Assembly (NCBI RefSeq): GCF_009931435.1 | Contig: NZ_CP043414.1 | Reading direction: 5' to 3' (one strand) | From: Escherichia coli | GTDB taxonomy: Bacteria > Pseudomonadota > Gammaproteobacteria > Enterobacterales > Enterobacteriaceae | DNA length: 64,000 nt | Part shown: positions 1 through 47,468 of the stretch, one piece after another | How positions within the stretch are numbered: position 1 is the stretch's first letter | Layout of the letters: the number at the start of each line of letters is the position of its first letter | Notes under the pieces: generated by a model | Database searches by the model: none | What the model was told of the DNA's origin: nothing | The model's input: the letters and a program-made list of their open reading frames with translations, nothing else | Translations under genes and position numbers: made by a program

Positions 1-153
1 AACAACATTATTAGCGCGCAGATGGATTACGCCGGTGGCGTTAAGTTCGGCATCATGCTGACTGAAATGCACGGCACACAACAAGATACGCAAGCCGCCA
101 TTGCCTGGCTGCAGGAACACCATGTAAAAGTAGAGGTACTGGGTTATGTCTGA
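1..153 (+). CDS. metN: Methionine ABC transporter ATP-binding protein MetN, C-terminal fragment (5' end outside window)
   Basis: Frame 1 reads ...[37 protein letters not shown] then TGA at 151-153; stop overlaps metI ATG (146) in ATGTCTGA, typical metNIQ coupling. Confidence 0.85.
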
Positions 154-799
154 GCCGATGATGTGGCTGCTGGTTCGTGGCGTATGGGAAACGCTGGCAA
201 TGACCTTCGTATCCGGTTTTTTTGGCTTTGTGATTGGTCTGCCGGTTGGCGTTCTGCTTTATGTCACGCGTCCGGGGCAAATTATTGCTAACGCGAAGCT
301 GTATCGTACCGTTTCTGCGATTGTGAACATTTTCCGATCCATCCCGTTCATTATCTTGCTGGTATGGATGATTCCGTTTACTCGCGTTATTGTCGGTACA
401 TCGATTGGTTTGCAGGCAGCGATTGTTCCGTTAACCGTTGGTGCAGCACCGTTTATTGCCCGTATGGTCGAGAACGCTCTGCTGGAGATCCCAACCGGGT
501 TAATTGAAGCTTCCCGCGCAATGGGTGCTACGCCGATGCAGATCGTGCGCAAAGTGCTGTTACCGGAGGCGTTGCCAGGTCTGGTGAATGCAGCAACTAT
601 CACCCTGATTACTCTGGTCGGTTATTCCGCAATGGGTGGCGCAGTCGGTGCCGGTGGTTTGGGTCAGATTGGCTATCAGTATGGCTACATCGGTTACAAC
701 GCGACGGTGATGAATACGGTACTGGTATTGCTGGTCATTCTGGTTTATTTAATTCAGTTCGCAGGCGACCGCATCGTCCGGGCTGTCACTCGCAAATAA
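146..799 (+). CDS. metI: Methionine ABC transporter permease MetI
   Basis: 217-aa ORF, hydrophobic multi-TM permease, sequence and length recognised as E. coli MetI; position between metN and metQ. Confidence 0.95.
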
Positions 800-838
800 C
801 GTTCAACACAACATAAATAATTGAAGAAGGAATAAGGT

Positions 839-1654
839 ATGGCGTTCAAATTCAAAACCTTTGCGGCAGTGGGAGCCCTGATTGGATCACTGGCACTGGT
901 AGGCTGCGGTCAGGATGAAAAAGATCCAAACCACATTAAAGTCGGCGTGATTGTTGGTGCCGAACAGCAGGTTGCAGAAGTCGCGCAGAAAGTCGCGAAA
1001 GACAAATATGGCCTGGACGTTGAGCTGGTCACCTTCAACGACTATGTTCTGCCAAACGAAGCATTGAGCAAAGGCGATATCGACGCCAACGCCTTCCAGC
1101 ATAAACCGTACCTTGATCAGCAACTGAAAGATCGTGGCTACAAACTGGTCGCAGTAGGCAACACGTTTGTGTATCCGATTGCCGGTTACTCCAAGAAAAT
1201 CAAATCGCTGGATGAACTGCAGGATGGTTCGCAGGTTGCCGTGCCAAACGACCCGACTAACCTTGGTCGTTCACTGCTGCTGCTGCAAAAAGTGGGCTTG
1301 ATCAAACTGAAAGATGGCGTTGGCCTGTTGCCAACAGTTCTTGATGTTGTTGAGAACCCAAAAAACCTGAAAATTGTTGAGCTGGAAGCACCGCAGCTGC
1401 CGCGCTCTCTGGACGATGCGCAAATCGCTCTGGCGGTTATCAACACCACCTATGCCAGCCAGATTGGCCTGACTCCGGCGAAAGACGGTATCTTTGTCGA
1501 AGATAAAGAGTCTCCGTACGTAAACCTGATCGTGACGCGTGAAGATAACAAAGACGCAGAGAATGTGAAGAAATTCGTCCAGGCTTATCAGTCTGACGAA
1601 GTTTACGAAGCAGCGAACAAAGTGTTTAACGGTGGCGCTGTTAAAGGCTGGTAA
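839..1654 (+). CDS. metQ: Methionine-binding lipoprotein MetQ (NlpA family)
   Basis: 271-aa ORF with signal peptide and lipobox LVGC; recognised MetQ sequence; RBS AAGGAA upstream. Confidence 0.95.
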   Translation: MAFKFKTFAAVGALIGSLALVGCGQDEKDPNHIKVGVIVGAEQQVAEVAQKVAKDKYGLDVELVTFNDYVLPNEALSKGDIDANAFQHKPYLDQQLKDRGYKLVAVGNTFVYPIAGYSKKIKSLDELQDGSQVAVPNDPTNLGRSLLLLQKVGLIKLKDGVGLLPTVLDVVENPKNLKIVELEAPQLPRSLDDAQIALAVINTTYASQIGLTPAKDGIFVEDKESPYVNLIVTREDNKDAENVKKFVQAYQSDEVYEAANKVFNGGAVKGW

Positions 1655-1691
1655 TTTTTAGGCTGTTTCCACAATTTGTAATATCATTCAG

Positions 1692-1720
1692 GACGGGCGC
1701 TTGCCCGTCTTGTCATTTTT
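1692..1720 (+). terminator. Intrinsic terminator downstream of metQ
   Basis: Hairpin GACGGGCGCttGCCCGTC followed by TTGTCATTTTT. Confidence 0.6.
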
Positions 1721-1771
1721 ACAAGCTCCTGATTCAATATTGACGTTTTGATCATACATTGAGGAAATACT

Positions 1772-2176
1772 ATGCGTGCTTTACCGATCTGTTTAGTAGC
1801 ACTCATGCTAAGCGGCTGTTCCATGTTAAGCAGATCCCCTGTCGAACCCGTTCAAAGCACTGCACCCCAGCCGAAAGCGGAGCCTGCAAAACCGAAAGCA
1901 CCGCGCGCCGCGCCGGTCCGAATTTATACCAATGCAGAAGAATTAGTCGGCAAACCATTCCGCGATCTCGGTGAAGTCAGTGGCGATTCTTGCCAGGCCT
2001 CTAATCAGGACTCTCCGCCGAGCATTCCAACCGCGCGTAAGCGGATGCAAATCAATGCCTCTAAAATGAAAGCCAATGCGGTATTACTGCATAGCTGCGA
2101 AGTTACCAGCGGTACGCCAGGCTGCTATCGTCAGGCTGTATGTATCGGTTCTGCGCTTAACATTACGGCGAAATGA
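1772..2176 (+). CDS. rcsF: Outer-membrane lipoprotein RcsF (Rcs phosphorelay sensor)
   Basis: 134-aa ORF, lipobox LSGC, Pro/Lys-rich linker, four Cys in C-terminal domain; recognised RcsF. Confidence 0.93.
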   Translation: MRALPICLVALMLSGCSMLSRSPVEPVQSTAPQPKAEPAKPKAPRAAPVRIYTNAEELVGKPFRDLGEVSGDSCQASNQDSPPSIPTARKRMQINASKMKANAVLLHSCEVTSGTPGCYRQAVCIGSALNITAK

Positions 2177-2880
2177 GCAGTTTCCAGTTCGAGCAAATAG
2201 GCGTTATTCGCTCGCCCTATAAAGAAAAATTCGCCGTTCCGCGCCAGCCAGGTCTGGTAAAAAGCGCCAACGGTGAACTGCATCTCATTGCTCCCTACAA
2301 CCAGGCCGACGCCGTTCGCGGCCTGGAAGCGTTTAGCCATTTATGGATCCTTTTTGTCTTTCATCAAACAATGGAAGGCGGCTGGCGTCCGACTGTGCGT
2401 CCACCGCGCCTCGGCGGTAACGCCAGAATGGGCGTTTTCGCCACACGCTCTACTTTCCGCCCTAACCCGATTGGTATGTCGCTGGTAGAGCTGAAGGAAG
2501 TTATTTGTCATAAAGATAGCGTGATTCTGAAGCTCGGCAGTCTGGATCTGGTCGATGGTACGCCGGTGGTAGATATCAAACCGTATCTTCCCTTTGCCGA
2601 ATCGCTTCCTGATGCCAGTGCCAGCTATGCGCAAAGTGCACCAGCGGCAGAGATGGCGGTGAGTTTTACCTTAGAGGTCGAAAAGCAGCTTTTGACATTG
2701 GAGAAGCGCTATCCGCAGTTAACGCTGTTTATCCGCGAAGTACTGGCGCAGGACCCGCGTCCAGCCTATCGTAAAGGTGAGGAAACGGGCAAAACCTATG
2801 CCGTCTGGCTGCATAATTTTAACGTTCGCTGGCGCGTCACCGACGCTGGTTTTGAAGTCTTTGCGCTGGAACCGCGTTAA
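2173..2880 (+). CDS. trmO: tRNA (adenine37-N6)-methyltransferase TrmO (YaeB/TsaA family)
   Basis: 235-aa ORF overlapping rcsF stop by 4 nt; recognised YaeB sequence. Confidence 0.9.
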   Translation: MSSFQFEQIGVIRSPYKEKFAVPRQPGLVKSANGELHLIAPYNQADAVRGLEAFSHLWILFVFHQTMEGGWRPTVRPPRLGGNARMGVFATRSTFRPNPIGMSLVELKEVICHKDSVILKLGSLDLVDGTPVVDIKPYLPFAESLPDASASYAQSAPAAEMAVSFTLEVEKQLLTLEKRYPQLTLFIREVLAQDPRPAYRKGEETGKTYAVWLHNFNVRWRVTDAGFEVFALEPR

Positions 2881-2990
2881 ATTCGCGCCCTTCTCTTTTG
2901 ACATTTCTTTTGCACTGGTAAACTAAATCACTTTTTTTGTCCCAGGCTCGCCTTGAGCCTGCTCTACCTTCCAACTGGAACCGTAACAAC

Positions 2991-4709
2991 ATGCGTACTA
3001 GCCAATACCTGCTCTCCACTCTTAAGGAGACACCTGCCGACGCCGAGGTGATCAGCCATCAGCTGATGTTGCGCGCCGGGATGATCCGCAAGCTGGCCTC
3101 CGGGTTATACACCTGGCTGCCGACCGGCGTGCGCGTTCTGAAAAAAGTCGAAAACATCGTGCGTGAAGAGATGAACAACGCCGGTGCGATCGAGGTGTTA
3201 ATGCCGGTGGTTCAGCCATCTGAACTGTGGCAAGAGAGTGGTCGTTGGGAACAGTATGGCCCGGAATTGCTGCGTATTGCTGACCGTGGTGACCGTCCGT
3301 TCGTACTTGGCCCAACTCATGAAGAAGTGATTACCGACCTGATTCGTAACGAGCTGAGCTCTTACAAACAGCTGCCGCTGAACTTCTATCAGATCCAGAC
3401 CAAGTTCCGTGATGAAGTGCGCCCGCGTTTCGGCGTCATGCGTTCCCGCGAATTCCTGATGAAAGATGCTTACTCTTTCCATACCTCTCAGGAATCCCTG
3501 CAGGAAACCTACGATGCAATGTATGCGGCCTACAGCAAAATCTTCAGCCGCATGGGGCTGGATTTCCGCGCCGTACAGGCCGACACCGGTTCTATCGGCG
3601 GTAGCGCCTCTCACGAATTCCAGGTGCTGGCGCAGAGCGGTGAAGACGATGTGGTCTTCTCCGACACCTCTGACTATGCAGCGAACATTGAGCTGGCAGA
3701 AGCTATCGCGCCGAAAGAACCGCGCGCTGCTGCTACCCAGGAAATGACGCTGGTTGATACGCCGAACGCGAAAACCATCGCGGAACTGGTTGAACAGTTC
3801 AATCTGCCGATTGAGAAAACGGTGAAGACTCTGCTGGTTAAAGCGGTTGAAGGCAGTAGCTTCCCGCTGGTTGCGCTGCTGGTGCGTGGTGACCACGAGC
3901 TGAACGAAGTTAAAGCAGAAAAACTGCCGCAGGTTGCAAGCCCGCTGACTTTCGCGACTGAAGAAGAAATTCGTGCGGTGGTTAAAGCCGGTCCGGGTTC
4001 ACTGGGTCCGGTAAACATGCCGATTCCGGTAGTAATTGACCGTACTGTTGCGGCGATGAGTGATTTTGCTGCTGGTGCTAACATCGATGGCAAACACTAC
4101 TTCGGTATCAACTGGGATCGCGATGTCGCAACCCCGGAAGTTGCGGATATCCGTAACGTAGTGGCTGGCGATCCAAGCCCGGATGGCCAGGGTACGCTGC
4201 TGATCAAACGTGGTATCGAAGTCGGTCACATCTTCCAGCTGGGTACTAAGTACTCCGAAGCACTTAAAGCCTCCGTTCAGGGTGAAGATGGCCGTAATCA
4301 GATCCTGACTATGGGTTGCTACGGTATTGGCGTAACGCGCGTAGTAGCGGCGGCAATTGAACAGAACTACGACGAACGCGGCATCGTATGGCCTGACGCT
4401 ATCGCACCTTTCCAGGTGGCGATTCTGCCGATGAATATGCACAAATCCTTCCGCGTACAGGAGCTGGCTGAGAAACTGTATAGCGAACTGCGCGCACAGG
4501 GTATCGAAGTGCTGCTGGATGATCGCAAAGAACGTCCGGGCGTGATGTTTGCTGATATGGAACTGATCGGTATTCCGCACACTATCGTGTTGGGTGACCG
4601 TAACCTCGACAACGACGATATCGAATACAAATACCGTCGTAACGGTGAGAAACAGTTAATTAAGACCGGTGACATCGTCGATTATCTGGTGAAACAGATT
4701 AAAGGCTGA
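2991..4709 (+). CDS. proS: Prolyl-tRNA synthetase
   Basis: ORF track gives 590 aa from an upstream start; canonical ProS (572 aa) begins at internal [23 protein letters not shown]; class II aaRS motifs. Confidence 0.95.
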
Positions 4710-4718
4710 TGCCAGAAA

Positions 4719-4746
4719 GGGTCCTGAATTTCAGGACCCTTTTTTA
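4719..4746 (+). terminator. Intrinsic terminator downstream of proS
   Basis: Hairpin GGGTCCTGAAatTTCAGGACCC followed by TTTTTT. Confidence 0.7.
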
Positions 4747-4761
4747 CATGGATTGTATAAA

Positions 4762-5586
4762 ATGGATAAACCAAAGGCGCATTGCCGCCTGCTTCTCCCC
4801 TGCTTTCTTTCACTTTCGGCCTGTACCGTTGATATCAGCCAGCCAGACTCATCAGCCACAGCGGTAGATACCGAGGCAAAAACATGGGCAGTCAAATTCC
4901 AGCATCAAAGCTCTTTCACCGAACAATCAATAAAAGAAATAACAGAACCTGATCTCAAACCCGGCGATTTACTGTTCTCCTCAAGCCTCGGGGTAACCTC
5001 ATTTGGTATCCGCGTCTTCAGCACTTCCTCAGTGAGCCACGTTGCAATCTTTTTGGGAGATAATAACGTTGCAGAAGCGACAGGAGATGGCGTCCAGATT
5101 GTTTCCCTTAAAAAAGCGATGAAGCATAGTGATAAGCTTTTCGTCTTACGAGTCCCGGATCTTACCCCGCAACAAGCCACAGAAATTACCGCGTTTGCCA
5201 ATAAAATCAAAGATAGCGGTTATAACTATCGCGGCATTGTCGAATTTATTCCATTTATGGTGACTCGCCAGATGTGCTCACTGAATCCGTTCTCCGAGGA
5301 TTTTCGCCAACAGTGCGTCAGCGGCCTGGCGAAAGCGCAGTTAAGCAGTGTGAGCGAAGGAGACAAAAAGTCGTGGTTTTGTTCGGAATTTGTCACTGAT
5401 GCATTTGCCAAAGCCGGACATCCGCTTACGCTGGCACAGTCTGGCTGGATTAGCCCTGCCGATCTGATGCATATGCGTACTGGCGATGTCTCTGCGTTTA
5501 AGCCAGAAACGCAATTAGAGTATATTGGGCACTTGAAGCCAGGGATTTATATCAAAGCGGGTCGCTTCGTTGGGTTGACTCAGTGA
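4762..5586 (+). CDS. yaeF: Lipoprotein YaeF, permuted NlpC/P60 (C40) peptidase family, function unknown
   Basis: 274 aa from MDKPKAH...; lipobox LSLSAC; His (SHVAIF) precedes Cys (WFCSEF) consistent with permuted papain-like order; GC lower than neighbours. Confidence 0.85.
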   Translation: MDKPKAHCRLLLPCFLSLSACTVDISQPDSSATAVDTEAKTWAVKFQHQSSFTEQSIKEITEPDLKPGDLLFSSSLGVTSFGIRVFSTSSVSHVAIFLGDNNVAEATGDGVQIVSLKKAMKHSDKLFVLRVPDLTPQQATEITAFANKIKDSGYNYRGIVEFIPFMVTRQMCSLNPFSEDFRQQCVSGLAKAQLSSVSEGDKKSWFCSEFVTDAFAKAGHPLTLAQSGWISPADLMHMRTGDVSAFKPETQLEYIGHLKPGIYIKAGRFVGLTQ

Positions 5587-5612
5587 TAAAAGCCAGCCTC
5601 GTCCACAAAATA

Positions 5613-5711
5613 CCGGATGAGGCGTGAGCGCCTTACCCGGCCTACAAAATCGTGCTAATACAAAATGTTGCATTATTGGCTGTAGGCCTGATAAGCGCTG
5701 CGCATCAGGCA
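5613..5711. repeat. REP/BIME element (two inverted REP units) between yaeF and nlpE
   Basis: CCGGATGAGGCGTGAGCGCCTTACCCGGCCTACA and TGTAGGCCTGATAAGCGCTGCGCATCAGGCA: canonical REP palindromes in opposite orientation. Confidence 0.7.
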
Positions 5712-5741
5712 ATTTTTCGTTTGTTTCTGTCTCACGATGGC

Positions 5742-6452
5742 TTACTGCCCCAAACTACTGCAATCCTGGTGCGGGTAAAATTTACCTGCCGTATCGGGCG
5801 CAAATACTTTGGTCGGCGCACCAGTATCCGGATTAGCCTCAAGCGTAAAGTGACCTTCTACTGACAGTAACACTGGTTTCTCGCTGTTGCCGCGGGCAGC
5901 CAAATAGCCCCGTTCCAGCTCAGCGTTATTCGCTACCATGAAACGTTTTCCGGTCGCACAATCAGTAAAGGTTGCCGCATCAGCCATATAAAAATACATG
6001 CCGCGTAGAGTCATCGGCGTCACTGGCAGGCTGGATTTTGCCGGTTCCAGTGTATAGTTGAACTGCGATTCGATCGGATTGCCTTCACGATCGAGCATCT
6101 CCAACGCATCTCCTTTCGCCCGATAATATGACTTTTCACCTTTACTGTCGGTTAATACCAGTTTGTCAGCGGTTCGCGCCCATGTACCGTAGGAGGCGAA
6201 AGAGGAAGGCTCTTCACGCGCGCCCAGATAACGCTCATTCATCACCCAGGTTCCATCTTTTTCGAGGAACAGAGAGGTTTCGATACCTTCGCAATCAGCA
6301 CACGGCAGCACGCCGCGCCAGCTTTGCGGCATCGGCTTCAGTTCAGCGGCCTGCGCCGGAGAAAGCGTATCGACTTCGGCTCGATTATTACATCCCATCA
6401 GAGTAAAGAGGCTGATTACAGCCATCGCTGTCACTATCGCTTTTTTCACCAT
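5742..6452 (-). CDS. nlpE: Outer-membrane lipoprotein NlpE (CutF), Cpx pathway activator
   Basis: 236-aa ORF, lipobox LMGC, CxxC motif; recognised NlpE. Confidence 0.93.
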   Translation of the reverse strand: MVKKAIVTAMAVISLFTLMGCNNRAEVDTLSPAQAAELKPMPQSWRGVLPCADCEGIETSLFLEKDGTWVMNERYLGAREEPSSFASYGTWARTADKLVLTDSKGEKSYYRAKGDALEMLDREGNPIESQFNYTLEPAKSSLPVTPMTLRGMYFYMADAATFTDCATGKRFMVANNAELERGYLAARGNSEKPVLLSVEGHFTLEANPDTGAPTKVFAPDTAGKFYPHQDCSSLGQ

Positions 6453-6465
6453 CCATTCCTTCTTT

Positions 6466-6888
6466 TTATTCCCGACCGCCGCGCACTTTGCCGCGCAACG
6501 CCTTCACGCTTGATTTTTGTGCTTTCGATACCAGCCTGCGCTCTTTTGATGCGCGGGTAGGTCGTGTCGGTCGCCGGTTTTTTTGTTCTGTTGTTAATTC
6601 TTTAATCACTGCCACCAGCCGAGCCAGCGCCGCTTCGCGGTTCAGTTCCTGGCTGCGGTATTCCTGTGCCTTGATGACTATCACTCCATCGCTGCTAATC
6701 AGATGATGGCTGGCAGCGAGCAGGCGCTCTTTGTAATACTCTGGCAGGCTGGACGCTCGAATGTCAAAACGCAGATGAATAGCCGTTGAGGTCTTATTAA
6801 CATGCTGTCCGCCCGCGCCCTGTGCACGAATAGCAGTGATCTCAAACTCGCCATCGGGGATAGCAACATGTCGGGAAATCATAATCAT
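6466..6888 (-). CDS. arfB: Peptidyl-tRNA hydrolase ArfB (YaeJ), ribosome rescue factor
   Basis: 140-aa ORF with GGQ motif ([10 protein letters not shown]) and basic C-terminal tail; recognised ArfB. Confidence 0.93.
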
Positions 6889-7430
6889 GAAGGTTGTTGC
6901 CAGGCGATTAAATTTACTTCCAGATTATTCTTATCATCCGATAACCAAATCACCCCATCCTGAATCGTTGCCTGCAGCGTCATGGTACGATCGGCAAAGG
7001 CGCTCACTTTTGCCAGTTGCTCGTCGTCCAGATACCAGACAGAAAGATTGGCAAACTGCGCACATTTGCTCTGATTTTGCTGCCACCAGATTTGCGCCGC
7101 CCGACTATTATAGGCAAACAGCGCCACTTCTGCGGCCTGGGTGCAGGCTTTCTTAATCCGCCGCTCATCCGGCAGCCCCAGTTCAATCCACAAATCAATG
7201 CCCAGATGATCATTACGCAGCCACGCTTCCGGCTCATCATCGGCACACAAACCTCGGGTAAATTGCAGACGTTCATCAGCATATTTCAGCCACGCCAGCA
7301 GGCGCAGCATCATGCGCTCCTGGGTTTCTGAAGGATGGCGCGCCAGCGTCAGAGAGGCATCGAGAAACTGGTTGCGGTCGAGATCGGCCACATTAACCGT
7401 CGCTTTATAAATTGTCGCTTTAAGCGCCAT
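6885..7430 (-). CDS. yaeQ: Conserved protein YaeQ
   Basis: 181-aa ORF, start overlaps nothing, stop overlaps arfB start by 4 nt; recognised YaeQ. Confidence 0.9.
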
Positions 7431-7595
7431 AAGAAAACTCCTTTCGAATCAGGAGGCCATTGTAACGGAATACATGCAGTTGCGGCGCTGATATTGCAGA
7501 AATGAGTGTGGTATAGTCACCTTGCGAAACAGAGTTTATCTTCGTAGGCTTAGACTTGCATCCACGGTTAAGTCAGAGTGCTGACAGGAGGGCAT

Positions 7596-7796
7596 GTGGA
7601 AAAATATTGTGAGTTAATACGCAAGCGGTACGCGGAAATCGCCAGCGGAGACTTAGGATACGTTCCGGACGCGCTGGGCTGCGTTTTGAAAGTGCTGAAT
7701 GAAATGGCTGCCGACGATGCCCTTTCTGAGGCTGTCAGGGAAAAAGCAGCATACGCTGCGGCAAACTTACTGGTGAGCGATTATGTCAATGAATGA
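7596..7796 (+). CDS. yaeP: Small protein YaeP (UPF0253)
   Basis: 66 codons from GTG at 7596 preceded by AGGAGG (7585-7590); sequence [23 protein letters not shown]... recognised. Confidence 0.85.
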
Positions 7797-8043
7797 TACG
7801 TATCAACCAATCAATTGTGATGATTACGATAATCTTGAGCTCGCCTGCCAGCATCATTTAATGCTGACACTTGAGCTGAAAGATGGCGAAAAACTGCAGG
7901 GGAAGGCCAGCGATTTAGTCTCCCGCAAAAATGTGGAATATCTGGTCGTTGAAGCTGCTGGCGAAACCCGCGAGCTACGCCTGGATAAAATTACCAGCTT
8001 TAGCCACCCGGAAATTGGTACGGTGGTGGTGAGCGAGTCCTGA
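7789..8043 (+). CDS. rof: Rho-binding antiterminator Rof (YaeO)
   Basis: 84 aa from [20 protein letters not shown]...; overlaps yaeP 3' end; recognised Rof. Confidence 0.88.
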
Positions 8044-8052
8044 TTGACTTTC

Positions 8053-8085
8053 GCCGGATGCGACGTTTGAAGCGTCTTATCCGGC
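8053..8085. repeat. REP element between rof and tilS (convergent gene ends)
   Basis: GCCGGATGCGACGTTTGAAGCGTCTTATCCGGC, canonical REP palindrome. Confidence 0.65.
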
Positions 8086-8091
8086 TTTCAC

Positions 8092-9390
8092 TTAACTAAG
8101 CGTTTTCTTCCAGACAAAACTTACGCCATTCTCACCTTCGGCCACACCTTCTTGCGTCACAAATACCTCTGCCGCTGCAATCAGCGTTTCGCCATAAAAC
8201 AGCAGTGGCGTGGTGTCACGCAGCCACGGCGGTACGCCCAGTTCCTGCCAGATTTTCTTTAGCTTACGTCCGCCGTTGCGGCCGACAATATGCAGCAATC
8301 CTGGCGCTTTGAAACGCACGCTGACCGCTTCGTCTGCACGCGGAGGGCGAATATCGCCTCCCGCAGTAAGTTGTACACTTCCCAGCGCCGCCGGTAATTC
8401 CAGCGGTTGTAGCCACGTCTGCCACGGCACAATGGTTTCGCTTTGCCCAGTGACGGATTTAATCCACCACAGTTGCGACTGATAGCGGCGGATTTCAAAC
8501 GCACCCAAACGTAAACAGGGGGAAGCATCTTCTCGCGCCAGCGCCACTTCCTGCCAGATCCTCACCAACGCGTCGCGGGAAGGCATCGGTGCATTCTGCC
8601 CTGCCAGCCAGCGGCGGATAATCGCCGCGCGACGGGCATCACTCATCGCCAGCATTGGCGCAATCTGCAGCGTCCCCTGCGGCGTTTGACAGTGTGCTAA
8701 ATCATCTGCCAGCAGTTCATCCAGCAGGCTCTCTTGCTCAGCACAAAGTGCAGCGCTGCGGGCCGTTGCTTCGGCAAAATGCGGCCAACGCTGCTGCAAT
8801 AACGGCACTACGCGCAGGCGCAGGAAGTTACGATCGTATGAGTCGTCCTGATTACTTTCGTCTTCAATCCAACGTAAACCATGCGCCAACGCCCACTGCT
8901 CCAGTTCTCCCCGTGTGCGGGCGAGCAACGGGCGGATCAGCCGCGTTCCGGCAAACTCCGAGACTTCCGCCATAGCCGAAAGCCCTGCAGGGCCGCTACC
9001 ACGTTTTAACGCCAGCAGAAACGTTTCACATTGATCGTCGAGATGTTGCGCTGTAACCAGCACTTCACCAGGTAACAGGGTACGAGCAAATGCCTGATAA
9101 CGTGCCTGCCGCGCCTGCGCCTCAATACCTAGCCCCTCTTGCGCAAGTTGCACACGCTCAACCACCAGCGGCACCTGCCACTGCTGGCAGATATTTTCAC
9201 AATGTTTCACCCAAGCATCAGCGTTGGCACTTAAACCGTGATGCACATGAATAGCGCGCAGGGTGACGCCCGGATTTTCCGTCCGCCACTGCACCAACTG
9301 ATGCAGCAGAACGGTGGAGTCAAGCCCGCCGCTAAAGGCCACCAGAATCTGGCGTGAGATGAGAAGTTGTCTATTGAGCGTGAGTGTCAT
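8092..9390 (-). CDS. tilS: tRNA(Ile)-lysidine synthetase TilS (MesJ)
   Basis: 432-aa ORF with PP-loop SGGxDS ([12 protein letters not shown]); recognised TilS. Confidence 0.95.
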
Positions 9391-9454
9391 GATGGTGCGA
9401 TTTTACAGTAGCAATGCCCGGCACGTTACCGGGCAAATGTGGCGATGACAAGCC

Positions 9455-9844
9455 TTACTGCTCATACAGTTCCAGCGGCAGCCCGTCAGGATCGTTAAAG
9501 AACGTGAAGCGTTTTTGCGTATACGGGTCGACACGTATGGCTTCACATTTCACGTTATGGCTTTCAAGATGCGCCACTGCCGCATCGATATCATCAACGC
9601 TAAAAGCCAGATGACGCAGGCCGCAAGCTTCCGGTCGGCTGGGGCGCTCCGGCGGGAACGGAAATGAGAAAAGCTCAATCACATATTGCCCATTAAGCGC
9701 CAAATCCCCTTTCCACGAATCGCGCGCTTCGCGATAGACTTCGCTTTGCAGCGTGAAACCGAGAATATCGCAGTAGAAAGCTTTGCTCACCGCATAATCC
9801 GTCGCAATAATCGCAATATGATGAACTTGTTTTAAACCCAGCAT
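9455..9844 (-). CDS. yaeR: VOC/glyoxalase-family protein YaeR
   Basis: 129 aa from internal ATG (MLGLKQVHHIAIIATDY...); ORF track's 138-aa form starts 9 codons upstream. Confidence 0.85.
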   Translation of the reverse strand: MLGLKQVHHIAIIATDYAVSKAFYCDILGFTLQSEVYREARDSWKGDLALNGQYVIELFSFPFPPERPSRPEACGLRHLAFSVDDIDAAVAHLESHNVKCEAIRVDPYTQKRFTFFNDPDGLPLELYEQ

Positions 9845-9900
9845 AACGTCTCCTTTATTTGTTAACAGCACGTTACTCGCCCGGAAGCCGCTCTGGCAAG

Positions 9901-12042
9901 TTATCCCGCCATTTTTAGGACTCGTACGCGGTAAACGCCATCTTCGTCCTGTTTCGCGCCGTGAATATCCGTTTCAAAGCCGGGGTAGCGCTGACCCACC
10001 GAACAGAGCATCAGCAGAAAATCGAGTACCGTGCGGCTCTCCTCGGTCAGCATTTCTCCTGGCATCAGTAGCGGTACGCCAGGCGGATAAGGCAGGATCA
10101 TATTTGCCGATACTCTACCGACCAGTTGTTCCAGCGCAATGGTTTCTACTTCACCTTTAATCTGTCGTTGCCAGGCCTGATGTGGCGTCATGATCATCTC
10201 CGGCAAAGTATCAAATGCCCGCAACATCAAACCGGGAAGATCGTGTTTACGAATCAGCTCATGGATCCCTTGCGCGAGATCCTGAATACGCATATTGCGA
10301 TAAAAATCGGGATCTTCTGCATAGAGATCGGGCAGCATATTTTTGATCCGCAGGTTGAGATCGTAAGAGCGCTTAAATTCCGTCAACCCACGCAATAATC
10401 CCATTGCTTTGGTTTTATCGATGCCAATACTAAAGAGAAACAGCAGGTTATAAGGGCCGGTTTTCTCTACTACGATCCCACGTTCGTCGAGGAATTTTGC
10501 CACCAGCGCCGCCGGGATCCCCTCATCGCTCATATTGCCCTGCTCGTCCATCCCCGGTGTCAAAATAGTGACTTTAACCGGATCGAGAAACATATGATCG
10601 GCATCCGCATCGTTAAAGCCGTGCCACTGTTCGCCAGGCGCAACGGGCCAGCATTCGGCTTCATCCACCTGCGGCGGTTGCCAGATATCGAAAAACCAGC
10701 CGTCAGACTCTTCCCGCAGCCGCTGGACCTCTTTGCGAAAATGCAGCGCTCGTTCTACTGAACGGTTAATCAGCCGTTTGCCCGGATTACCACGCAGCAT
10801 CGCCGCCGCTGTCTCAACCGAAGCAACAATGGGATAACTGGGCGAGGTGGTGGTATGCATCATAAAGGCTTCATTAAACGCCTCTTCGTCGTACTCACCT
10901 TTAATGTGGATCAGTGATGCCTGCGACAACGCCGCCAGCATTTTGTGGGTTGATTGCGTTTCGAAGAAAACTTTTCCTGCCATCCGATCGCCACTCATAC
11001 CACTTTTGCCCTGATAGATCGGATGAAAATGAGTATACGGGACCCAGGCGGAATCGAAGTGGATCGAGGGGACATCCAGCGTCTGTTTGATCCAGTCGGT
11101 GTTGTAGAGCAAGCCATCATAGGTTGAGTTGGTGATCACCGCATGAACCGGCCATTGTGCCTGCGTGGTAGCAGCGACTTTCTCTTCGATACTGTCGCGG
11201 GTAAATTCTCGTCGCGGGATCCCGCCCAGAATCCCCAACGCATTACGTGTTGGTTTTAGCCAGACCGGCACTACATCGTTCATCATCAACAGATGCGCCA
11301 GCGATTTATGACAATTGCGGTCAATTAACAGCGTACTGCCGGATGGCGCGGCGTACATACCCACAATTTTGTTCGACGTCGATGTTCCGTTGGTGACGAT
11401 ATAACTCTGTTCCGCGCCGAAAGTCCGTGCGATGTACTCTTCCGCTTCCAGATGTGGCCCGGTGTGGTCGAGCAACGAACCTAGCTCGGTTACCGAAATA
11501 GAGACGTCCGCCTTGAGGGTATTCCCGCCGAAAAAATCATAAAACAGACAGCCTACCGGGCTTTTCTGATACGCGGTGCCACCCATATGCCCCGGCGTAC
11601 AAAAGGTGTACTTCCGCTCTTTAACATAGGTAAACAAGGCTTTCGTGAACGGCGGGGTAATGTTATCGAGATATTCGTTGGTGTACTGACGAATACGAAT
11701 GGCGATATCTTCTGCCTGCCCCAACGCATATTCAAAGAACCAGAGCGCCATCCGCATATCCTGCACGCTGACATCCATCGTCGAGTGAGTATTGATGAAG
11801 GCATAAAGCGGGAGATATTCATTAAGTTGATTGATATCGCTACATAAATCGAGACTGTATTCATCCCAGTCAAAAATCACGCCGCATATTCGTGAGTTGT
11901 GTTCGATAAATTTCAGCAAATCAACGCTGTTTTGTGGCCAGATAATCTGAAAACCTTGCGCCACCAGCGCCGACTCCAGTTCTTTGATGGGCTCATCTTT
12001 ATAAAAGACGCCATGCGGTCCCATAATGGCAATGATATTCAT
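9901..12042 (-). CDS. ldcC: Constitutive lysine decarboxylase LdcC
   Basis: 713-aa ORF, PLP-dependent Orn/Lys/Arg decarboxylase fold (STHK lysine motif); recognised LdcC. Confidence 0.95.
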   Translation of the reverse strand: MNIIAIMGPHGVFYKDEPIKELESALVAQGFQIIWPQNSVDLLKFIEHNSRICGVIFDWDEYSLDLCSDINQLNEYLPLYAFINTHSTMDVSVQDMRMALWFFEYALGQAEDIAIRIRQYTNEYLDNITPPFTKALFTYVKERKYTFCTPGHMGGTAYQKSPVGCLFYDFFGGNTLKADVSISVTELGSLLDHTGPHLEAEEYIARTFGAEQSYIVTNGTSTSNKIVGMYAAPSGSTLLIDRNCHKSLAHLLMMNDVVPVWLKPTRNALGILGGIPRREFTRDSIEEKVAATTQAQWPVHAVITNSTYDGLLYNTDWIKQTLDVPSIHFDSAWVPYTHFHPIYQGKSGMSGDRMAGKVFFETQSTHKMLAALSQASLIHIKGEYDEEAFNEAFMMHTTTSPSYPIVASVETAAAMLRGNPGKRLINRSVERALHFRKEVQRLREESDGWFFDIWQPPQVDEAECWPVAPGEQWHGFNDADADHMFLDPVKVTILTPGMDEQGNMSDEGIPAALVAKFLDERGIVVEKTGPYNLLFLFSIGIDKTKAMGLLRGLTEFKRSYDLNLRIKNMLPDLYAEDPDFYRNMRIQDLAQGIHELIRKHDLPGLMLRAFDTLPEMIMTPHQAWQRQIKGEVETIALEQLVGRVSANMILPYPPGVPLLMPGEMLTEESRTVLDFLLMLCSVGQRYPGFETDIHGAKQDEDGVYRVRVLKMAG

Positions 12043-18372: not shown

Positions 18373-19160
18373 TAACGAATCAGACCGCGCGTTGAGCGTG
18401 CAAAGAAATCGGTAAAGGCTTTTACTTCCGGATATGTTTCCGCCAGTTCGGCAATTTCCGGTTTCACTTCATCGAGCGTTTTACCGCTGCGATAAATCAG
18501 CTTATACGCATTGCGGATAGCGGTAATCGCCTCACGGCTGAATCCGCGGCGCTTCAGCCCTTCGATGTTGACACCGAACGGCGTTGCGTGGTTACCCTGC
18601 GCAATGACATAAGGAGGGACGTCCTGCGCCACACCGGAACAGCCGCCAACCATCACGTGCGCACCAATGATGCAGAACTGATGGACTGCGGTCATGCCGC
18701 CGATGATCGCGAAGTCGTCTACCGATACATGACCCGCCAGCGTTGCGTTGTTGGCGAGGATGCAGCGGTTACCTACCGTACAATCGTGCGCAATGTGCGC
18801 GTTGATCATCAGTAAGTTGTCGCTGCCCACCTTCGTCAATCCACCGCCCTGGACTGTGCCACGATGAATGGTGACGCTTTCGCGAATGCGGTTACGATCG
18901 CCGATTTCCACACGGGTCGGTTCGCCAGCATATTTAAGATCCTGGTTGACTTCGCCGATGGAGGCGAACTGATAAATCTCATTGTCGCGGCCAATTTTAG
19001 TATGACCATTCACGACAACGTGAGATTTCAGTACGGTACCCTCACCAATTTCGACATGGGGTCCAACGATACAAAAAGGACCAATGTGAGCATTGGCGGC
19101 AATCGATGCGCCCTCTTCCACAATGGCGGTTGGATGCACAAAGGCGGATTTATCAATCAC
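18372..19160 (-). CDS. lpxA: UDP-N-acetylglucosamine acyltransferase
   Basis: 262-aa ORF with hexapeptide (left-handed beta-helix) repeats; recognised LpxA. Confidence 0.96.
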
Positions 19161-19163
19161 GTA

Positions 19164-19619
19164 TCAGGCCTCCCGGCTACGAGCACACATCATCGTTGCT
19201 TCGCAAACTACTTTACCGTCGACCAGAGCAACCCCTTTAAAACGGGTCAGGCCGCGGCGCGTTTTTTCGAAAGTGACTTCCATGATCATTTGATCGCCTG
19301 GCACGACCGGGCGCTTGAAGCGCGCTTCGTCAATACCGGCGAAGTAGTACAGCTCGCCCGGTTCCAGTTTTCCTACGCTCTTAAACGCCAGAATACCTGT
19401 TGCCTGTGCCATTGCTTCCAGAATAAGCACACCCGGGAAAATCGGTTTTCCAGGAAAATGGCCCTGGAAGAATGGCTCATTGACAGAGACATTTTTTACT
19501 GCGCGCAGAAAACGACCTTCTTCAAAATCCAGCACGCGATCCACCAGTAAGAACGGGAAACGGTGCGGCAGAAGTTCTAAAATCTCTTCAATCTGCAGAG
19601 TATGAGTGTTAGTAGTCAA
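19164..19619 (-). CDS. fabZ: 3-hydroxyacyl-ACP dehydratase FabZ
   Basis: 151 codons from TTG at 19619 ([23 protein letters not shown]...) with AGGAAG RBS; ORF track 182-aa form also starts at TTG; no in-frame ATG near N-terminus. Confidence 0.93.
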
Positions 19620-30011: not shown

Positions 30012-30863
30012 TTAAGACTGCTTGGACATCGCAGCAACTTCTGCTGCAAAGTCAGTCTCAACTTTCTCGATGCCTTCACCTACTTCGAAGCGGATGAAGC
30101 CAGTCACTTCAGCGTTATGCTCTTTCAGCAGCTGACCAACAGTTTTGCTTGGTTCCATAACGAACGGCTGACCGGTCAGAGAAACTTCGCCGGTGAATTT
30201 CTTCATGCGGCCTTCAACCATTTTCTCTGCGATTTCTTTCGGCTTACCAGACTGCATCGCGATATCCAGCTGAACCTGGTATTCTTTCTCTACCACTTCA
30301 GCGGAAACGTCTTCCGGTTTGATGAATTCTGGTTTGCTTGCAGCAACGTGCATAGCGATGTGTTTAACCAGCTCTTCGTCAGCGCCTTTAGCAGCAACCA
30401 GAACGCCGATACGCGCACCGTGCTGATAAGAACCCAGAACGTCGCCTTCCAGCGCAGCAACGCGGCGAATGTTGATGTTTTCACCGATTTTCGCTACCAG
30501 CGCAACACGTTCTTCTTCGAACTGTGCTTTCAGAACTTCAACGTCAGTGATTTTGCCAGCAACAGCTGCGTCCAGAACTTTGTCTGCGAACGCCTGGAAA
30601 CCAGCGTCTTTTGCAACGAAGTCAGTCTGGCAGTTAACTTCCAGAATGATGCCGTAGTTGCCGTCGATTTTGGTTTTGATCACGCCGTCAGCAGCAACGT
30701 TGCCTGCTTTTTTCGCTGCTTTGATAGCACCGGACTTACGCATGTTTTCGATTGCCAGCTCGATGTCGCCGTTAGCTTCAGTCAGTGCTTTTTTGCAATC
30801 CATCATGCCTGCGCCAGTACGCTCACGCAGCTCTTTTACCAGGGATGCGGTAATTTCAGCCAT
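30012..30863 (-). CDS. tsf: Elongation factor Ts
   Basis: 283-aa [30 protein letters not shown]...; recognised EF-Ts. Confidence 0.97.
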
Positions 30864-30918
30864 TCTAAAATCCTCGGAGATGTGATCTGCCCGGCGTTAA
30901 ACCGCACAGATATAAAAG

Positions 30919-30946
30919 TGAAAAAGGGGGCCATATGCAGGCCCCC
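30919..30946 (-). terminator. Attenuator-type intrinsic terminator in rpsB-tsf intergenic region
   Basis: Minus strand: GGGGGCCtgcatatGGCCCCC perfect 7-bp GC stem followed by TTTTTCAC, just upstream of tsf start. Confidence 0.65.
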
Positions 30947-31030
30947 TAACCAAACGTGTACTACCTGGTCTATAAGGGCTCTCCCCCCTTCATATTTCGC
31001 GCCGCAGATGCGTTGTCTTCGCTCGCTCAT

Positions 31031-31070
31031 CCCGGTCACTTACTGATGTAAGCTCCCGGGAATTCTCGAG
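31031..31070. repeat. boxC-like imperfect palindromic repeat in rpsB-tsf spacer
   Basis: CCCGGTCACTTACTGATGTAAGCTCCCGGG palindrome; 3' arm continues into CCCGGGAATTCTCGAG. Confidence 0.5.
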
Positions 31071-46088: not shown

Positions 46089-47369
46089 ATGAGTAAGTCT
46101 GAAAATCTATACAGCGCAGCGCGCGAGCTGATCCCTGGCGGTGTGAACTCCCCTGTTCGCGCCTTTACCGGCGTGGGCGGCACTCCACTGTTTATCGAAA
46201 AAGCGGACGGCGCTTATCTGTACGATGTTGATGGCAAAGCCTATATCGATTATGTCGGTTCCTGGGGGCCGATGGTGCTGGGCCATAACCATCCGGCGAT
46301 CCGCAATGCCGTGATTGAAGCCGCCGAACGTGGTCTGAGCTTTGGCGCACCGACCGAAATGGAAGTGAAAATGGCGCAACTGGTGACCGAACTGGTGCCG
46401 ACGATGGATATGGTGCGCATGGTGAACTCCGGCACCGAAGCGACGATGAGCGCCATCCGCCTGGCCCGTGGTTTTACCGGTCGCGACAAAATCATTAAAT
46501 TCGAAGGTTGCTACCACGGTCACGCTGACTGTCTGCTGGTAAAAGCCGGTTCTGGCGCACTCACTTTAGGCCAGCCAAACTCGCCGGGCGTTCCGGCAGA
46601 TTTCGCCAAACATACATTAACCTGTACTTATAACGATCTGGCCTCTGTACGCGCCGCGTTTGAGCAATACCCGCAAGAGATTGCCTGTATTATTGTCGAG
46701 CCAGTAGCAGGCAACATGAACTGTGTTCCGCCGCTGCCAGAGTTCCTACCGGGTCTGCGCGCACTGTGCGACGAATTTGGCGCATTGCTGATCATCGATG
46801 AAGTGATGACCGGTTTCCGCGTGGCGCTGGCTGGCGCGCAGGATTATTACGACGTGGTGCCAGACCTCACCTGCCTGGGCAAAATCATCGGCGGTGGAAT
46901 GCCGGTAGGCGCATTCGGGGGTCGTCGTGATGTGATGGATGCGCTGGCCCCAACCGGTCCGGTCTATCAGGCGGGTACGCTTTCCGGTAACCCGATTGCG
47001 ATGGCAGCCGGTTTCGCCTGTCTGAATGAAGTCGCGCAGCCGGGCGTTCACGAGACGCTGGATGAGCTGACAACACGTCTGGCAGAAGGTCTGCTGGAAG
47101 CGGCAGAAGAAGCGGGAATTCCATTGGTCGTTAACCACGTTGGCGGCATGTTCGGTATTTTCTTTACCGACGCCGAGTCCGTGACGTGCTATCAGGATGT
47201 GATGGCCTGCGACGTCGAGCGCTTTAAGCGTTTCTTCCATATGATGCTGGATGAAGGTGTTTACCTGGCACCGTCAGCGTTTGAAGCGGGCTTTATGTCT
47301 GTGGCGCACAGCATGGAAGATATCAATAACACCATCGATGCTGCACGTCGGGTGTTTGCGAAGTTGTGA
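46089..47369 (+). CDS. hemL: Glutamate-1-semialdehyde 2,1-aminomutase
   Basis: 426-aa [29 protein letters not shown]...; recognised HemL. Confidence 0.96.
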
Positions 47370-47383
47370 TCCAGCATGGTTTG

Positions 47384-47468
47384 TCGGATGCGGCGTAAAC
47401 GCCTTATCCGACCTACAGATCAGGACCGTTTGTAGGCCCGATAAGACGCCACAGCGTCGCATCGGGCA
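47384..47468. repeat. BIME (pair of inverted REP units) between convergent hemL and fhuB
   Basis: GTCGGATGCGGCGTAAACGCCTTATCCGACCTACA and TGTAGGCCCGATAAGACGCCACAGCGTCGCATCGGGCA. Confidence 0.7.

Follow-up and report, generated by a model that had tools for sequence, protein, structure and literature searches.

What does YaeF, the product of a gene lying between proS and nlpE in Escherichia coli, act on? The question is raised by a 64,000-nucleotide stretch of E. coli DNA (contig NZ_CP043414.1; hereafter the window), in which yaeF occupies positions 4762-5586 of the + strand, and for which a first reading of the letters (the original prediction) had described an AT-rich lipoprotein gene with a permuted NlpC/P60-type peptidase signature. 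Our sequence and fold comparisons support a fold of the permuted papain-like type, in which a His-Glu-Tyr-Cys set is conserved. Both the literature and RefSeq already record the gene with its family, its permuted order and its lipoprotein signal, and to that extent the finding is correct yet known. The one new element is that YaeF-type domains repeatedly occur fused to cell-wall hydrolases, and it is on account of these fusions that we lean towards a cell-wall amide as the substrate.

Gene, fold and active site of YaeF

The yaeF frame starts with ATG at 4762 and its TGA stop ends at 5586, giving a product of 274 residues. The NCBIfam equivalog profile NF008552 matched residues 1-274 over profile positions 1-274 with 527.3 bits (cutoff 279), and this match also favoured ATG 4762 over an in-frame upstream TTG at 4753. 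Pfam PF05708 (Peptidase_C92, the YaeF/YiiX permuted papain-like amidases) reached 44.2 bits against a gathering threshold of 27; its alignment was limited to profile positions 2-98 of 166 (residues 65-156), because a hairpin insertion in YaeF separates the Cys-bearing half. The Pfam family NLPC_P60 (PF00877) also scored above its gathering value (35.9 bits, cutoff 23). In matching E. coli genomes the RefSeq annotation reads 'yaeF: YaeF family permuted papain-like enzyme', placed between proS and nlpE, so the reading itself is not new. Of 5426 complete E. coli genomes, 5423 gave a DNA match to yaeF, with coverage of at least 80% in 5419; it is an ordinary, already annotated core gene of the species. 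The YaeF/YiiX family was described in 2003 by Anantharaman and Aravind, as cited in PMC6403190, and the permuted NlpC/P60 family was treated by Xu et al. in 2011 (PMC3142127). The original prediction had called the function unknown, and indeed our literature search found no paper that tests YaeF; where it was mentioned, this was as the name of a family, in a list of transposon hits or in a table of a pangenome.

The candidate catalytic residues were assigned by comparison with two relatives of solved structure, BcPPNE of Bacillus cereus (PDB 3kw0) and YiiX of E. coli (2if6), whose active-site numbering and roles we took from Xu et al. 2011 (PMC3142127). The features of the gene and its product are as follows, all on the + strand:

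4762-5586, +: yaeF coding sequence, 274 codons plus TGA (open reading frame; NF008552 and PF05708; RefSeq annotation in matching E. coli genomes; ratio of nonsynonymous to synonymous substitution rates, dN/dS)
4762-4824, +: predicted lipoprotein signal peptide, residues 1-21, with the lipobox L18-S19-A20-C21 at its end (sequence; orthologue conservation)
5038-5040, +: codon of His93 (SHVAIF), candidate catalytic His, aligned to His49 of BcPPNE and of YiiX
5074-5076, +: codon of Glu105 (VAEAT), candidate third member of the triad orienting the His, aligned to Glu64 of BcPPNE
5221-5223, +: codon of Tyr154 (GYNYRG), candidate NlpC/P60 signature Tyr for the oxyanion or P1 carbonyl, aligned to Tyr115 of YiiX in the profile alignment
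5275-5316, +: Cys172-Cys185 pair, borne by a helical hairpin inserted between Tyr154 and Cys207 (homologue counts; helices 156-173 and 179-193 in the model)
5380-5382, +: codon of Cys207 (WFCSEF), candidate nucleophile at the start of helix 207-217 of the model, aligned to Cys154 of BcPPNE and Cys128 of YiiX
5521-5535, +: Y254-I-G256-H257-L258, C-terminal strand motif specific to the YaeF subfamily (strand 252-259 in the model)

A phmmer alignment to BcPPNE paired His93 with His49, Glu105 with Glu64 and Cys207 with Cys154. A profile made from the YaeF alignment matched 3kw0 at 3.3e-14 and 2if6 at 1.2e-11, with the His, Glu, Tyr and Cys all aligned. In a set of 110 homologues that share less than 50% identity with the query, His93 and Cys207 were each conserved in 109 and Glu105 in 108 (Asp in the remaining two), and position 154 was Tyr in 98 and Phe in 11. 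The complete tetrad was found in 182 of 200 homologues, and in 11 more Phe replaced the Tyr. D69, S92 and R130 were nearly invariant as well, and have counterparts in YiiX. The original prediction had placed the His of SHVAIF ahead of the Cys of WFCSEF, in permuted order, and both align onto the catalytic His and Cys of 3kw0 and 2if6; together with NF008552 and PF05708, this alignment upholds the membership of YaeF in the permuted YaeF/YiiX branch of NlpC/P60.

An AlphaFold2 model of YaeF, built on a 76-sequence alignment, had a mean predicted local distance difference test score (pLDDT) of 89.1, above 90 over most of residues 60-260, and a predicted template-modelling score (pTM) of 0.87. Structural comparison of the model with solved structures gave the following scores:

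3kw0 (BcPPNE): 17.3, 2.3 Å over 163 residues
2if6 (YiiX): 17.1, 2.1 Å over 142 residues
8iuf_E7 (NDUEG7 of Euglena, a respiratory supercomplex subunit): 9.3
TseH (permuted superfamily member): 8.1
PLAAT4 (permuted superfamily member): 8.1
MARTX RID (permuted superfamily member): 5.6
PPPDE (permuted superfamily member): 5.2
Aichivirus 2A: 5.2
canonical NlpC/P60 peptidoglycan peptidases: 3.3-4.5

A Foldseek search with the same model returned the same top two structures, 3kw0 and 2if6. The model thus shares its three-dimensional core with solved permuted NlpC/P60 members, and YaeF shows neither the Cys-then-His order nor the topology of the canonical NlpC/P60 endopeptidases. Judged by the alignments and the model, His93 and Cys207 do not appear to be misplaced for a catalytic dyad.

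Two further features set the YaeF subfamily apart. Cys172 and Cys185 were both present in 194 of 200 homologues and both absent in four, with one of them alone in two; because the two residues co-vary and the location of YaeF would be periplasmic, they probably form a disulfide. In the C-terminal YxGHL motif the Tyr was kept in 108, the Gly in 110, the His in 91 and the Leu in 106 of the 110 distant homologues; Arg stood in place of H257 in 16, which hints at the binding of an anionic group. This strand lies outside the sequence and profile alignments to 3kw0 and 2if6. In the enterobacterial clade helix 156-173 is strongly hydrophobic (GIVEFIPFMVT).

The N-terminus, MDKPKAHCRLLLPCFLSLSAC, carries the lipobox L18-S19-A20-C21 that the original prediction had read as LSLSAC, with Thr22 at position +2. 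As a lipoprotein signal we accepted a positive n-region, a hydrophobic h-region and a lipobox [LVI][ASTVI][GAS]C lying in roughly the first 35 residues, and YaeF fits this description with K3, K5 and R9, then LLLPCFLSL, then L-S-A-C21. Orthologues, among them those of Citrobacter, Klebsiella and Serratia, retain both the Cys column and the hydrophobic stretch before it in the 76-sequence alignment, with LLSAC, LLCAC, LLTAC, LVGC or LTGC at this place, and lipobox-like motifs were found in 100 of 139 stand-alone YaeF homologues. YaeF would accordingly be made as a lipoprotein precursor, the mature form starting at a lipidated Cys21. Lipoproteins that lack Asp at +2 are sorted to the outer membrane, and since the +2 residue of YaeF is Thr22 and not Asp, the protein is most likely sorted to the periplasmic face of that membrane.

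Wall-hydrolase fusions and the substrate of YaeF

An exhaustive HMMER search collected 709 YaeF-type relatives, and the domain architectures described here are those of the best 150. Sixty-six of these proteins are at least 400 residues long (400-1760), the YaeF-type domain being one of several modules; the fused domains are 30-43% identical to YaeF over residues ~60-259 and keep both the Cys pair and the motif YVGHLK. Amidase_2, Amidase_3 or Phage_lysozyme occurred in 15 of the 66. Peptidase_C70 was found in 21, trypsin and S8 domains in others, and Peptidase_M15_3 and PG_binding_1 in single cases. In none of the 66 did Pfam recognise a lipase, a patatin or an acyltransferase domain. One fused protein adjoins a second protein with Amidase_3/VanY, and the example from a Burkholderia pyrrocinia isolate (within the segment 399959-424561 of pBPJTT, NZ_CP091309.1) is annotated as an N-acetylmuramoyl-L-alanine amidase.

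The gene neighbourhoods of homologues were mixed. Among the eight that we inspected no partner gene recurred, so that they offered no functional clue, and outside Enterobacterales the neighbours were heterogeneous. An OmpA-domain gene precedes the homologue in Snodgrassella, and M15 and YkuD genes were also among the neighbours. In a metagenome-assembled genome a stand-alone YaeF-like lipoprotein gene has a 4-nt overlap with the gene of an M24 (PepP-like) aminopeptidase.

Several side observations concern the multi-enzyme proteins. Read by eye, the N-termini of those of 400-1500 residues show no signal peptide; 'MPAQIRPNRLEVTDRFPMLGFTIRT' and 'MxNRF/LxxLE' are motifs seen repeatedly at this end. 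The cluster partners, both in Burkholderia and on one metagenome contig, are a sigma-54 activator, an S8 peptidase and five to eight proteins without a Pfam match, one of which has a weak Trypco2 match; the Burkholderia cluster also has a DUF3467 gene. These clusters look like an uncharacterised conserved system. A link to phage lysins was considered and rejected, the matches being weak ones to unannotated Ralstonia phage proteins (30-33% identity, E ~1e-4).

The reading that we favour, and to which we give about an even chance of being right, is that YaeF cleaves a cell-wall amide, in a peptidoglycan stem peptide or a peptidoglycan-attached protein, or another envelope amide, rather than a fatty-acyl bond. 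We lean this way because YaeF-type domains elsewhere are fused with MurNAc-L-Ala amidases and lysozymes. In multi-module lysins the module beside an amidase or muramidase is normally an endopeptidase, a role usually taken by canonical NlpC/P60 or CHAP domains, and this habit is the second reason for the preference. The points that we counted for peptidoglycan include the 15 wall-hydrolase fusions, the Amidase_3/VanY neighbour, the B. pyrrocinia annotation and the OmpA-domain neighbour in Snodgrassella.

In the proposed mechanism, the YaeF precursor would be cut and lipidated at Cys21 and, with Thr at +2, transferred to the outer membrane in a Lol-dependent manner. The globular part, residues ~60-260, would work as a circularly permuted NlpC/P60 papain-like cysteine hydrolase. 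Going by the chemistry of the family, His93, held by Glu105, would deprotonate Cys207, whose thiolate would then attack a carbonyl (P1) positioned by Tyr154; a thioester acyl-enzyme would form and be resolved by water. A Cys172-Cys185 disulfide made by DsbA would probably staple the helical hairpin that walls the substrate pocket.

Alternatively, the same enzyme, with the same fold and in the same location, could break a fatty-acyl ester or amide. It would then be a thiol acyl-hydrolase or acyltransferase of the periplasm whose substrates are phospholipids of the inner leaflet or the acyl chains that lipoproteins carry, and in this it would resemble other permuted NlpC/P60 proteins. We regard this as possible but doubtful, leaving a smaller share of probability to some other substrate, and several of the observations that speak for it weigh at the same time against a cell-wall amide. 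In the crystal structure of YiiX a fatty acid occupied a narrow, hydrophobic S1 tunnel, a pocket proposed as a trait of the family, and Xu et al. propose that permuted enzymes cleave amide bonds between lipids and amino acids (PMC3142127). The tested permuted members named in the literature consulted act on acyl chains: they are PLAAT/HRASLS and LRAT, the T6SS effectors TseH and Tox-Act1, which show phospholipase activity (PMC12994826), and LnsA, which is required for lipoprotein N-acylation (PMC7387801). In Cupriavidus a stand-alone YaeF-like lipoprotein gene overlaps a gene of the fatty-acid-hydroxylase family by 4 nt and is translationally coupled to it. The membrane anchor would place YaeF beside lipid, and the hydrophobic helix 156-173 of the enterobacterial clade points the same way. 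Moreover, fusion to a wall hydrolase is evidence of an envelope-attacking context and not of bond specificity, C70, trypsin and S8 domains being fused as well, and divergence may separate the enterobacterial lipoprotein clade from the fused proteins. Against an acyl substrate stands the contrast between the 15 long proteins with an amidase or lysozyme and the lack of any with a lipid-enzyme hit. YaeF is, besides, remote from YiiX (the YiiX equivalog gave 20.9 bits against a cutoff of 216), so the YiiX pocket need not transfer, and the gene neighbourhoods outside Enterobacterales are, as said, heterogeneous.

A bolder form of this alternative, which we consider improbable, is that YaeF, tethered to the outer membrane, serves as a thiol acyl-hydrolase or acyltransferase in the editing of inner-leaflet phospholipids or of the lipid anchors on lipoproteins. 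We know of no such periplasmic anchor-editing enzyme described in E. coli. If it were true, the position of yaeF between rcsF and nlpE, which encode lipoprotein stress sensors, would be more than coincidence.

Flanking elements, expression and origin of yaeF

Three further elements flank the gene:

4714-4745, +: proS intrinsic terminator, a G+C-rich hairpin (4714-4744) followed by a T run to 4745 (RNA fold; near-identical sequence in strain C600)
5612-5645, +: repetitive extragenic palindromic (REP) element, Y type (consensus pattern; copy common to C600)
5682-5710, - strand: REP element, inverted (0 matches in 100 shuffles)

The proS terminator ends 17 nt ahead of the yaeF ATG, and RNA folding of 4706-4765 gave -23.5 kcal/mol (z -5.0). 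The spacer between proS and yaeF (4709-4762) measures 52 bp and is nearly filled by the hairpin and T run, leaving no room for a conventional promoter; in Serratia it is ~200 bp. The Shine-Dalgarno sequence is weak, a GGA 13 nt upstream. A scan of 4300-5900 found no sigma-70-like promoter, and nothing convincing was seen when an alternative-sigma site for yaeF was looked for by eye. The gene is probably expressed at a low level, through read-through of the proS terminator or from an unrecognised promoter.

YaeF of K-12 (b0193) is the product of the same gene, with the same flanks and proS terminator. Between the window and the K-12-type strain C600, yaeF is 94.4% identical in DNA and 14 of 274 residues differ, none at a conserved position (dN 0.022, dS 0.195, dN/dS 0.115). 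Ten neighbouring genes compared in the same way gave DNA identities of 91.5-98.0% and dN/dS of 0-0.093, so that yaeF has the highest ratio of the 11, that is, it is the least constrained, and is still under clear purifying selection. We also considered unusual allelic divergence of yaeF, which is 90-95% identical to most E. coli, and rejected it, as the whole region is likewise diverged (dS 0.08-0.35 per gene): the low identity arises because the window comes from a divergent Escherichia lineage, and is not specific to the gene. Over positions 1-10000 this lineage is unusually far from K-12 (proS is 95.4% identical to that of C600), and a single RefSeq genome, of strain 2020CK-00188, matches at 99.7-100%.

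These data bear on the notion that yaeF is a decaying or silent relic, barely expressed and with a product that has no current catalytic role, which we judge very unlikely. The close terminator, the weak Shine-Dalgarno sequence, the want of a recognisable sigma-70-like promoter, the highest dN/dS of the 11 genes and the lack of a phenotype in our literature search would all suit a relic. However, a dN/dS of 0.115 still means strong purifying selection, 5419 of the 5426 complete E. coli genomes have the gene at full length, its synteny and length are kept out to Serratia, and neither the catalytic tetrad nor the Cys pair has been lost.

Downstream, yaeF (+) converges on nlpE (-, 5742-6452), and the two inverted REPs lie in the intergenic stretch between them, which qualifies as a bacterial interspersed mosaic element (BIME). 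The copies at 5613-5645 (+) and 5682-5710 (-) were called with the REP consensus sequences. The 33-base core of the first fits a pattern masking 3 of 4 variable consensus positions with no further mismatch, and a manual base count found 30 of the 34 positions of 5612-5645 in agreement with the Y consensus; like the inverted copy, it had no match in 100 shuffles. The BIME and the strand switch that the original prediction had placed after yaeF are therefore both there. The intergenic region folds at -50.3 kcal/mol (z -3.7). An Rfam scan of 4000-7000 returned no family at threshold, and the REP region gave a sub-threshold match to the REP-derived naRNA4. In C600 the BIME differs in its REP content, with the element at 5612-5645 common to both. 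A third REP, with three mismatches to the same Y consensus, lies at 47383-47416, directly downstream of an open reading frame ending at 47369.

This piece of the Escherichia chromosome runs metQ-rcsF-tsaA-proS-yaeF, followed on the opposite strand by nlpE-arfB-yaeQ; Serratia has the same order, beginning there with metNIQ. Four lipoprotein genes, metQ, rcsF, yaeF and nlpE, fall within 6 kb (839-6452), two of them encoding the envelope-stress sensors RcsF and NlpE; this clustering may be a coincidence.

The AT-richness that the original prediction had stressed proved real but modest. The G+C content (GC) of yaeF is 0.481, and 0.491 at third codon positions (GC3); the values for proS are 0.538 and 0.595. 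In sliding windows GC falls to 0.45-0.47 across yaeF. Set against a baseline of 52 open reading frames from a crude longest-frame call of the window (mean GC 0.525, standard deviation 0.026; mean GC3 0.560, standard deviation 0.047), however, yaeF lies at z -1.7 and -1.5, within the spread of the window, and four of the 52 have a lower GC3, e.g. 0.455 and 0.462. Two + strand frames in the baseline, 18864-19550 and 30117-31046, have atypical composition (GC1 ~0.50, GC3 ~0.63); they are probably antisense shadows of genes on the opposite strand, and as such a slight contamination of the GC3 baseline. Recent acquisition is ruled out by the synteny kept with Serratia and the unremarkable GC3; yaeF has long been resident and was not imported. 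The idea of a horizontally acquired insert between proS and nlpE, suggested by the lower GC and by REPs at the 3' end, is effectively refuted, given in addition a divergence from K-12 like that of the neighbours, a distribution in E. coli that is not patchy, and flanks with neither mobility genes nor direct repeats.

YaeF among known enzymes

YiiX and BcPPNE, the closest relatives of solved structure, are only 18-25% identical to YaeF. Compared with them, YaeF adds the lipoprotein signal and a linker of ~40 residues, its helical hairpin is longer and bears Cys172 and Cys185, and its C-terminal YxGHL strand is beyond the reach of sequence alignments. The lysine-binding Glu67 of BcPPNE has no counterpart, YaeF having Gly108 there, and the position of Asp68 is not conserved, being Asp109 in the YaeF of the window and Ala in that of K-12. 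PLAAT/HRASLS, LRAT, TseH, Tox-Act1 and LnsA of Staphylococcus aureus are far more distant from YaeF than these two, and what sets YaeF-type domains apart from such lipid-acting permuted enzymes is their fusion to wall hydrolases. Among canonical endopeptidases, MepS (Spr) is a lipoprotein like YaeF and a papain-like Cys/His enzyme of the same superfamily; the His regions are alike enough to account for the NLPC_P60 score, and the YaeF profile matches Spr at E 0.0017.

The best-studied bacterium thus has in its envelope an enzyme, YaeF, that is apparently intact and whose active site is conserved, yet for which we found no report of a substrate. If it cuts peptidoglycan, it would be an unrecognised addition to the redundant set of wall hydrolases of E. 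coli, and an exception to the rule now emerging for permuted NlpC/P60 enzymes, namely that their substrates are lipids. Should it cut acyl chains instead, it would offer a new route to remodel lipoproteins or outer-membrane lipids. With the clue from the fusions, defined candidate catalytic residues, soluble-domain boundaries and two classes of substrate, the question becomes a two-way one that is directly testable.

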